In this document: piece after piece, positions 15,001 to 18,000 of the stretch
How the letters are laid out: each line of letters begins with the position of its first letter
How positions within the stretch are numbered: the stretch's first letter is position 1
Assembly (NCBI GenBank): GCA_963735595.1
Contig: CAVTLK010000001.1
Location: 256,001 to 320,000, forward strand
Source: an uncultured delta proteobacterium
GTDB taxonomy: Bacteria; Desulfobacterota; Zymogenia; Zymogenales; Zymogenaceae
Reading direction: 5' to 3'
DNA: 64,000 nt
Position numbers: made by a program

Positions 15001-18000
15001 CCGTCGATGATTCCCTGTCAGGACGGGAACGGGCGTTTCTGTGTGAAAACGCGGAGCCGCTTTACGGGGACGTCAGAGGATTGTCAGAGTGATTCCAGTT
15101 TTTTAGCGGCTGTCTCAGCCTGGGGCTCCTTTGGGTATTTCTTCACGATGTCGGAGAAGATCGTCCTGGCGTGTGCCGTATCGTTAAGCTCGAGGAATGC
15201 GAAACCCTCTTTGAGCATTGCGGCCGGAACCTTATCTCCCGAGGGGTATTTCTTGATAACCGTATCGTATTCAAGGATCGCCCGCTCGTACGATTTACGG
15301 GCGTAATAGATCTCACCGATCCAGAATTGGGCGTTGTCGGCCAGCGACGAATCAGAGGAGCGCTCTATAAACGCCCTGAAGTCACGCTCGGCCCCGTCAT
15401 AGTCCTTATCCTGGAATTTCTTGTAGCCCGCGGCATAGAGATCCTCGGCTGTACGGCCGGCCCCGGAAGTGGGGGGCTCGTCCGTATCTCCGGGTACTGT
15501 GGTGCCGATCTTGTCCGACGGGGGCGAGGTCCCGGACGGATCCGACGAAGACTTAATAGCGAGTTTATTCTCGACGGCCGATAGCCTGCGCTCGATGCTA
15601 TAGAGGCGCGTCTCGATATCGGCGGTTGTCCTGTTGATAACCTCCTTCAGGACGGCGATTTCCTCGATCGCACGTTCGAACTCATACTGTTTTTCCTCGT
15701 AACTCCCCCGGATCTTTTTTACCTCTTCCATGACGGTATCATAATTAGCCCCGGATGTGGCCTTAGTATCCAGAGATGTCTTCTTGAGGATATCGACCTC
15801 GTCGTTCAACGAGCTGATCTGGCGCTGAAGATCTTCAATATTACCTGTTGTCACGCAGGACGAGATCAGGAATATACAAGAAAGTAATACGATACGTCCG
15901 TAGTAAGTTGACATCCCGACCTCCTTATAAAGAATCGTTCGTTTGACTATCGTCGTTCGATTGAATACGGTTTTATTATGAGCTATCGCTATTATACCGG
16001 GAACGAGGCTATCCATCAAGGCAAAATAAACGATAACTATTGACAACAGGCGGATTGATTGGGTACTATAAACCAACATGAAACGAATACTCGGGTTGAA
16101 CATCTAAATGATAGACTATAAAATAGTGTCCGATGATTCTCTCGTGGCGCAGGCTCAGAAAAAGGATTATCAGGCCTTTGAAGAGCTCGTGAAGCGCTAT
16201 GAGGGTAAGATATATGGCCATACGTTGAGGATGGTTGGAAATCGAGAAGACGCGCAGGACGTATTGCAGGAGACGTTTCTTAACGTATTTAAGAGTTTAG
16301 AGAATTTTCGCGGTGATTCTTCGTTTTCAACATGGATTTACAGGATTGCGACAAACAATGCGCTGATGCGTTTGAGGAAGCTCTCCCATGCTGAACGCGA
16401 ATTAAACGATGAGCTCCCGCCTCCCGAATCGATGAAACGGCAAGCCCTGGCAAGCCATATACTTGATCCGAAGGATGCATTCCTCGAAAAAGAGATGCTG
16501 CGGGAGTTGGACAAGGCCGTGGAACGGCTGCCGGAAAAATACCGAACGATCTTCCTTCTCCGGGACGTGGAGGAGTTTTCCACCGAGAGGACGGCTACTG
16601 TCCTCGGCATTTCGGAGGCGGCTGTAAAATCCCGTCTTCATCGGGCTCGGCTTTTTATCCGGGAGGCACTGCTTAGGAAATTTGAGGGGAAGACGGAGTC
16701 GTAAACATGAACGAACATCACGAGTGCAAGGACTGCAAGAAGATATTCGAGAAGCTGTCGGAATACATCGATAAAGAGCTTAATGAAGAAGAATGCCTTG
16801 TATTCGAGGAGCATATCAGGAATTGTAAACCCTGCCTCGATTTTCTCGAAAGCCTTCACTGTACCATCAATCTCTGCAGGCGGCTTGACAATCAAGAGTC
16901 GTACCGAATACCCCGTGACGTGAGCGTCCAACTGCACGAGTTCCTTAAGAAAGAATGCAAACTGTAACAGATCGAATGGAATCATGGTTGCCCTGTAGGA
17001 AACGGCGGCTGTAATATGAAACAATATATAAAAATAGCGGCGGGGACGGTACTGGGCTTCATCAGCGGGTGGATCCTCGGATTGGTGGTCCAATACGCCG
17101 GTTCCACGTGAACGGTATTTTGCCATCCGGCGGTTCCGGCCGTATTAGGCGGGATCATCGGGTTGGCCCTGGCCCTGGGAGGGCCGGAAGGCGGGAAATC
17201 GGGAAAAGGGATGCGAGGTGATACATAGTGAATATACCGGAATATGATCTGGTCATCATTGGTGCCGGTCCCGCCGGTCTAACGGCTGCGCTCTATGGGG
17301 GAAGGGGTGGATTGAAAACCCTTGTTCTCGAGCGGATGTCGGCAGGTGGACACGCGGCGATGACCGATGCCATTGAAAACTACCCCGGATTCCCCGAAGG
17401 GATATCCGGAACGGCGCTCGCCGAATCCATGGAGAAACAGACCAGGAAATTCGGCGCCTCCTTCAAGACGATTACCGAAGTGACTAAACTCGACCGTGCC
17501 GATGAGCTGTTCACGGTTACGGCCGGCGATGAGATGTTTACCGGTAAGGCCGTTATCGTCGCCTCCGGGGCCGATCCAACGAAGCTCGGCGTACCGCGGG
17601 AGGATGAGCTTATCGGCAAGGGGGTGAGCTATTGCGCCGTTTGTGACGGAGCATTTTTCAAGGGGGCGCAGGTAGCCGTTATCGGCGGAGGCAATTCCGC
17701 GTTGGAAGAGGCGATCTATTTAACGCGATATGCGAAACGGGTATACCTGATTCACCGCCGGGACAGGTTCAGAGCCGATAAGATACTTACCGATCGCGCG
17801 CTCTCTCACCCCTCGATCGAAGTTGTCATGGAGACCGTCGTCGAAGAGATAATTGGAGACCGGGCGGTGTCGGCGGTTAAGCTTAAAAACGTAAAGACAT
17901 CACAGACCAAGACCCTGGCGATCGAGGGGATATTCATATACGCCGGGTACCGGCCGAACACGGAGTATCTCACGGGTGTTGTTGATCTGGACGAGGTCGG

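Follow-up and report, generated by a model that had tools for sequence, protein, structure and literature searches.

A 70-codon gene in the window, i.e. the whole 64-kb stretch of genomic DNA from an uncultured Zymogenaceae bacterium that was analysed here, very likely encodes a two-helix membrane selenoprotein related to the DUF6132 family, as judged by sequence comparison. The predicted gene occupies 17016..17228 on the + strand, from an ATG at 17016 to a TAG at 17226-17228, and contains an in-frame TGA at codon 32 (17109..17111, +), predicted to specify Sec32; the TGA of the family falls at the position where DUF6132 proteins have their conserved Cys. Translation with TGA as Sec (U) yields 70 aa with the loop G-S-T-U32-T-V-F-C36-H-P, in which Cys36 (codon 17121..17123, +), at U-x3-C spacing, is the predicted partner of Sec32. 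Both the reading frame that continues across the TGA to 70 aa and the U-x3-C-[HNS]-P loop between two helices, as proposed in a preliminary description of this DNA, were confirmed. The family pattern gives one match in the 64-kb window and none in 100 shuffles, so that the motif is not attributable to chance. In run X1, one DNA contig covers the stretch. None of the runs contains half of the words sampled, and the contigs listed for two RNA runs leave the gene uncovered, which speaks neither for nor against its expression.

Hydropathy and AlphaFold place the two helices at residues 2-28 and 39-55, with U32 and C36 in the intervening loop (29-38), the AlphaFold model being of low confidence (pLDDT 61.5, pTM 0.36). 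A pair of hydrophobic, Gly-rich helices flanking a short loop that ends in [NHS]-P is a trait of DUF6132 and is present in the small protein, for which a search of PDB sequences returned nothing credible (best E 0.053). Mean Lys plus Arg content among family members is 1.53 at the N-terminus versus 0.61 in the loop, and this charge bias suggests that both termini are inside, while the loop either lies outside or dips into the membrane; the protein would therefore need to move electrons across the membrane or within it.

The relationship to DUF6132 is distant for the window protein itself, which scores 12.1 bits (E 0.15) against PF19628, missing the gathering cut-off of 23.2, and has no NCBIfam 20.0 match at E 1; both values reproduce those reported earlier. 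Across the family, PF19628 is matched at E<=1 by 29 of 47 members (best 5e-13), and the TGA is present in each of the 12 phylum-sample matches that exceed its cut-off. All eight protein-database matches carry DUF6132, and the initial view of an orphan family was accordingly not borne out. The further statements that the family lacks a Cys form and lacks a protein-database match hold for the phylum sample only: a HMMER search of cluster representatives returned 568 matches at E<=0.001, and of the 157 database proteins examined (the best 150 and 7 more), 148 carry Cys at the Sec site, 8 carry Trp and one carries Arg, with U in none. Metagenome pattern matches comprise true Cys forms in 49 of 90 cases. 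Four of eight C-x3-C proteins tested exceed the PF19628 cut-off (P0025 43.5, P0028 39.6, P0063 38.3 and P0113 26.4), the others falling below it (P0043 with 22.8, also P0021, P0045 and P0053), and a protein atlas groups one tested C-x3-C protein with DUF6132 clusters. The small protein is thus classed as a DUF6132-related Sec branch and not as a formal DUF6132 member.

DUF6132 Cys forms share with the Sec forms the two Gly-rich helices, a length of approximately 52-60 aa and a conserved site residue ahead of x3-[S/A/C]-N-P, but this residue is Sec in the Sec branch and Cys in the Cys forms, and the small protein lies under the PF19628 cut-off. The position of the partner Cys also differs, being +4 in the small protein and -5 in DUF6132 Cys forms; the upstream Cys of the DUF6132 C-x4-C motif is absent from the small protein, which has a Cys at +4 in its place, as do 27 Cys-form database proteins. 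Across 47 Sec proteins the partner is found at +4 only in 35 and at -5/-6 only in 12, with neither in 0, and across 148 Cys proteins it is upstream only in 112, at +4 only in 27, at both in 8 and at neither in 1. A U-x2-C variant occurs in 4 of 40 loci of the G401 phylum (L331, L333, L338, L339). Pro at +1 is rare in Sec loci (4/163) and usual in Cys loci (44/49).

What is new here is a family with Sec at the site where a known protein family has Cys, and this Sec branch of DUF6132 relatives is apparently uncatalogued. Table 1 of PMC13188914 (2026) lists 119 prokaryotic selenoprotein families, DUF6132 not among them, and a term search for DUF6132 in four supplements of PMC12013277 gave no match. 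NCBIfam 20.0 returned weak, unrelated membrane-protein matches for the 47 members among the families listed (25 of 28), literature searches returned one unrelated paper for DUF6132, and none was found that combines DUF302, OsmC, thioredoxin, rhodanese and CsoR. The proposal of a new, unannotated selenoprotein family holds in that the family is missing from the catalogues checked, but not in the sense of an orphan, since it is a Sec branch of DUF6132 relatives. TsoA, the LULAxC selenoprotein (NF045695), shares the U-x3-C spacing, as listed in Table 1 of PMC13188914, but TsoA membership was ruled out, as 0 of 5 carrier genomes match its 144-position model at E<=1. The Sec form of YeeE/YedE (GUxSG) is, like the small protein, a membrane selenoprotein with a Gly-rich Sec loop, but is far larger and has a different motif, with no profile match among the families listed.

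The preliminary description reported the TGA and its downstream frame to be conserved in all four genus genomes and in G006, and this was verified (4/4 and G006, with G001, G002 and G003 included). Absence of the small gene from 5 of 9 family relatives was likewise upheld: no true match was found in G004, G005, G007, G008 or G009, with the same outcome when a 140-row profile was also used on these five, and the lone weak match in G005 is an unrelated long frame. A 6-row profile finds matches in 54 of 401 phylum genomes. The best 51 matches, in 48 of the 401 genomes, all contain the TGA, whilst the 7 weakest (E 8e-4 to 9e-3) contain no stop codon. Fifty of the 51 TGA-containing matches were extracted, the 7 weakest being left out, and U stands at the aligned site in 49 of these 50 directly and in G060 after re-reading; a match in G368 (E 4e-4) lacks the motif.

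Confinement to Desulfobacterota, as first suggested, did not stand. A DNA pattern scan of GTDB gave at least 119 matches, and 114 of these 119 are true members (77 of 80 listed and 37 of 39 unlisted matches). Going by record titles for the GTDB pattern matches listed, Sec forms come from at least eight labelled lineages, namely Thermodesulfobacteriota/Deltaproteobacteria, Zixibacteria, Armatimonadota, Ignavibacteriales, Myxococcota, Bacillota, Vulcanimicrobiota and Sumerlaeota. The phylum and GTDB sets overlap, and among their 163 Sec loci there are 135 distinct U-x3-C sequences. Three genomes (G160, G189 and G268) each carry two Sec paralogs of the family. Since stars mark just 13 of 233 branches (trait columns included) in a tree of 236 rows and 53 columns, no claim on origins is made from it.

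Reading of UGA codon 32 as Sec is strongly supported by comparison of the Sec and Cys forms. The frame past the TGA remains open for 22-42 codons (median 23) in 163/163 Sec loci, although this set includes duplicates and was chosen by profile score, such that the open frame is partly built in; the reading frame beyond the TGA matches the second helix. Two Sec-form genes, L326 (G571) and L335 (G419), have a stop 14 and 9 codons past the TGA, respectively, and are considered broken genes or assembly errors. In the window, a SECIS-like hairpin lies at 17122..17167 (+), with a conserved lower stem (17123-17129 paired with 17159-17165) and an apical loop GUAUUA (17142-17147) 30 nt past the UGA, in keeping with the bacterial SECIS consensus of an apical-loop G and a spacing of 16-37 nt, as given in PMC13188914. 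The apical-G rule was dropped as a family-wide test, Sec and Cys forms not being separated by it (34/109 versus 6/34, difference not significant).

Stability and pairing are more informative at the level of the family. When the 57 nt after the codon were compared with synonymous-codon shuffles, in sequences thinned to 85% identity, Sec forms gave a mean z of -1.52, with 66 of 109 below -1, and Cys forms a mean z of +0.04, with 6 of 34 below -1. Sec forms have a common stem in which positions 15-21 pair with 57-51. Its third-codon-position pair 18-54 is formed in 86 of 109 Sec forms (C-G 48, U-A 20, U-G 18) and in 9 of 34 Cys forms, and pair 21-51 swaps between G-C and C-G (63 observed versus 47.5 shuffled); pair 15-57 is found in Cys forms about as often as in Sec forms and does not separate the groups. 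Stability of the downstream hairpin and the lower stem are specific to Sec forms. Insertion of Sec at codon 32 by SelB, directed by this hairpin, would accordingly be the expected mode of decoding, and we regard it as almost certain.

Presence of selA was examined as a second line of evidence, and its value depends on the phylum. In the window phylum, the earlier use of selA in outside carriers as support carries no weight, because 371 of 401 genomes have selA; co-occurrence there (46 of 49 family carriers) is uninformative and was rejected as a test. The three carriers without a selA match have selB and tRNA-Sec. In the G401 phylum, where selA is found in 90 of 171 genomes (53%), there are 42 family matches, of which 41 were checked (G401 included, G528 left out), and selA is present in 29 of the 32 carriers verified as Sec forms but in 1 of the 9 that have Cys forms, a contrast whose p of approximately 1e-5 is overstated, kin not being independent; the 3 Sec carriers without selA have selB.

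In G000, the genome that holds the window, selB, tRNA-Sec and a SelD with in-frame TGA are present, and selA (C4:329658-331176) has one extra base relative to G003, giving a frameshift near C4 330135. This gene is intact in G001, G002, G003 and G006, and in G005 it lies in several pieces. Because single-base indels are common between G000 and G003 (149 in 134.6 kb aligned across loci L287-L293, coding and non-coding), the selA frameshift is likely an assembly error; broken genes in the G000 and G003 assemblies call for caution. There are two selD-like genes in G000 (C3:6046-6975 and C3:24665-25476), one with an in-frame TGA and the other matched in two pieces. The possibility that the TGA is a true stop, leaving a 31-aa peptide, or a Trp codon would draw on this selA frameshift, on the Trp found at the site in 8 database proteins and on the lack of U in any of the 157. 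The Trp records (P0016, P0020, P0033, P0039, P0051, P0069, P0083 and P0103) probably stem, however, from gene calling in which TGA was taken as Trp. A general code of this kind was ruled out for G000, in which TGA, the commonest stop, ends 890 of 2213 long open frames, and the conserved second helix past the TGA as well as a hairpin and selA link specific to Sec forms also count against a stop or Trp codon. We consider a stop or Trp codon extremely improbable.

The small gene lies within a predicted operon on the + strand, which begins with an ECF sigma factor (16108..16704) and a zf-HC2 zinc-finger anti-sigma factor (16707..16967) and continues, after the small gene, with the thioredoxin reductase gene trxB (17228..18181; 396.8 bits against TIGR01292, cut-off 343) and an FmdB-family zinc-ribbon gene (18244..18456). 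The small gene and trxB overlap by one base, the final G of the TAG doubling as the initial G of the trxB GTG. This order is identical in 5/5 carriers of family f1, and the placement between an ECF sigma/anti-sigma pair and trxB is as originally described. The anti-sigma factor gives a weak RsrA match (29.1 bits, below the cut-off of 62.5). In Streptomyces, trxBA is under SigR/RsrA control. The upstream ECF/zinc anti-sigma pair may control the operon, which we put forward tentatively, at somewhat less than even chance; among the loci examined, the same-strand ECF/anti-sigma arrangement is found only in family f1. Downstream of the operon are two similar tandem ORFs (18608-19945 and 20027-21361), which we take from their motifs to be nucleotide-sugar dehydrogenase-like.

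The FmdB gene (58.1 bits against TIGR02605, cut-off 31.3) is likely a second candidate selenoprotein, with a predicted penultimate Sec. It ends in a TGA (18448-18450), an Arg codon and TAA, followed by a hairpin with a GUA loop (18462..18478, +) that fits the bacterial SECIS model, although a terminator is another possible reading of this hairpin. In each of 41 distinct FmdB genes close to family loci, a near-terminal TGA precedes a further 1-4 codons and a stop, and 23 of the 41 agree with the SECIS model. Such a TGA-plus-short-tail ending is absent from 10 control FmdB genes, taken from 5 genomes in which selA gave no match; two of these 10 have Cys-rich tails at the end. The FmdB selenoprotein of the GOS survey (TIGR02605, UxxU) belongs to the same zinc-ribbon family, but carries its U in the N-terminal ribbon, as catalogued in supplement file 3 of PMC12013277, and not at the penultimate codon as in the window gene.

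The functional tie to thioredoxin (Trx) proposed at the outset stands as a link to the system and not as one of adjacency. The best evidence for it is fusion in Cys forms: a C-terminal Trx is fused in 26 of 49 Cys loci (tblastn), 30 of 49 reach at least 120 aa, and single cases are fused to an AhpC/TSA (peroxiredoxin-like) domain and to rubredoxin. Two of the Cys-form DUF6132-thioredoxin fusions, L223 and L275, have long extra C-terminal parts (546 and 353 aa). DUF6132 Cys forms are thus stand-alone or fused, whereas no Sec form among the loci examined is fused to Trx and 0/163 reach 100 aa. In a census of same-strand neighbours within 1.5 kb of 77 Sec loci, the FmdB zinc ribbon is the commonest (28), followed by OsmC (17), DUF302 (14), Trx (13) and GalT-like genes (9), with CsoR-type repressors (5), MFS (5), SOD (3), CydA (3) and TrxB (1) more rarely, such that Trx or TrxB is present at only 14 of 77; near Cys loci, FmdB is found at 16 of 49. 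Adjacency to Trx reported for the window phylum was recovered at 11 of 44 loci outside f1 (1.5 kb), but all belong to family f37 and it is one family's trait. A cassette OsmC - DUF302 - Sec protein - FmdB recurs in loci labelled Zixibacteria and Ignavibacteriales, as does CsoR-type repressor - Trx - Sec protein in those labelled Armatimonadota (L088, L093, L106, L126, L130, L144, L153 and others).

We propose that U32 and C36 would form a reversible Se-S bond acting as a redox switch, because the partner Cys, upstream (mostly at -5) or at +4 (rarely +3), is almost never missing. Trx/TrxB would recycle this pair during oxidative or sulfur stress, and supply of electrons from Trx/TrxB to the Sec/Cys pair seems slightly better supported than not. 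Taken as a whole, a membrane selenoprotein whose U32-C36 switch is recycled by Trx/TrxB in stress defence is the reading that we favour by a modest measure, relying on sequence and gene context.

A role of the selenoprotein as a membrane carrier or transporter of sulfane sulfur or selenium, from which Trx would release the cargo, was also considered; YeeE/YedE and rhodanese-linked DUF2892 proteins serve as models for it. The OsmC, DUF302 and CsoR-type repressor genes and one TauE among the neighbours are consistent with it, as are the G-x-x-U loop of the small protein and the inclusion of YeeE/YedE (GUxSG) as a membrane selenoprotein in Table 1 of PMC13188914. Nevertheless, the families listed for the 47 members include no profile of YeeE, DUF2892 or rhodanese, no rhodanese or YeeE genes occur in the recurrent annotated neighbour clusters, and a second Cys that is almost always kept suits a disulfide pair, making sulfur or selenium carriage unlikely.

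A selenoprotein with this UxxxC/CxxxC spacing could also bind or sense soft metals (Cu, Hg or As) at a site that Trx would maintain in the reduced state; the CxxxC metal site of Sco proteins is the model here, and the CsoR-type metal-sensitive repressors (5/77 loci) and zinc-ribbon neighbours (28/77) would fit. We judge this quite unlikely, given recurrent neighbours without metal pumps or chaperones and a partner spacing that varies (-6, -5, +3, +4), something that a fixed metal site would not normally show. The prominence of FmdB, the most frequent neighbour across lineages (28/77; 16/49) and apparently itself a carrier of Sec (41/41 with TGA and 1-4 codons), together with the ECF and anti-sigma genes upstream in 5/5 f1 loci, raises the question of whether the protein is a membrane redox sensor or anchor acting on the FmdB protein or the anti-sigma factor and not an electron relay. 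This appears very unlikely, as the same-strand ECF/anti-sigma arrangement is restricted to f1 and the fusion partners observed are Trx, a peroxiredoxin-like domain and rubredoxin, with FmdB not among them.

The lack of Trx fusions among the Sec forms and the small share of Sec loci with Trx or TrxB nearby weigh against the favoured Trx-recycled switch, and so does the predicted topology: in a plain hairpin, a C-terminally fused Trx would be across the membrane from the Sec/Cys loop, unless the loop dips or the protein oligomerises. CcdA/DsbD proteins have a membrane Cys pair that is functionally tied to cytoplasmic thioredoxin, with six or more helices and the Cys residues on separate helices. 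The likeness is one of analogy only, the small protein having two helices and no CcdA/DsbD profile matching the 47 members among the families listed. By this analogy, oligomers of the 53-70 residue hairpin might form a selenium-using transmembrane relay that does a CcdA/DsbD-like job, from Trx to the outer face, in an operon with an FmdB selenoprotein and a redox-sensing anti-sigma switch, an arrangement that we regard as unlikely.

The family is common in uncultured lineages, being found in 12% of sampled genomes of the window phylum and about one fifth of those in the G401 phylum. Its small size and that of its neighbour's tail illustrate that gene callers miss very small genes and near-terminal UGA codons, the latter represented by a second candidate in the same operon. 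If correct, our assignment would add one more entry to the catalogue of 119 selenoprotein families from prokaryotes, in which integral membrane proteins are few. Sec would mark the catalytic residue of the uncharacterised DUF6132 family, and the moving partner Cys and the thioredoxin fusions would together give DUF6132 a testable function.
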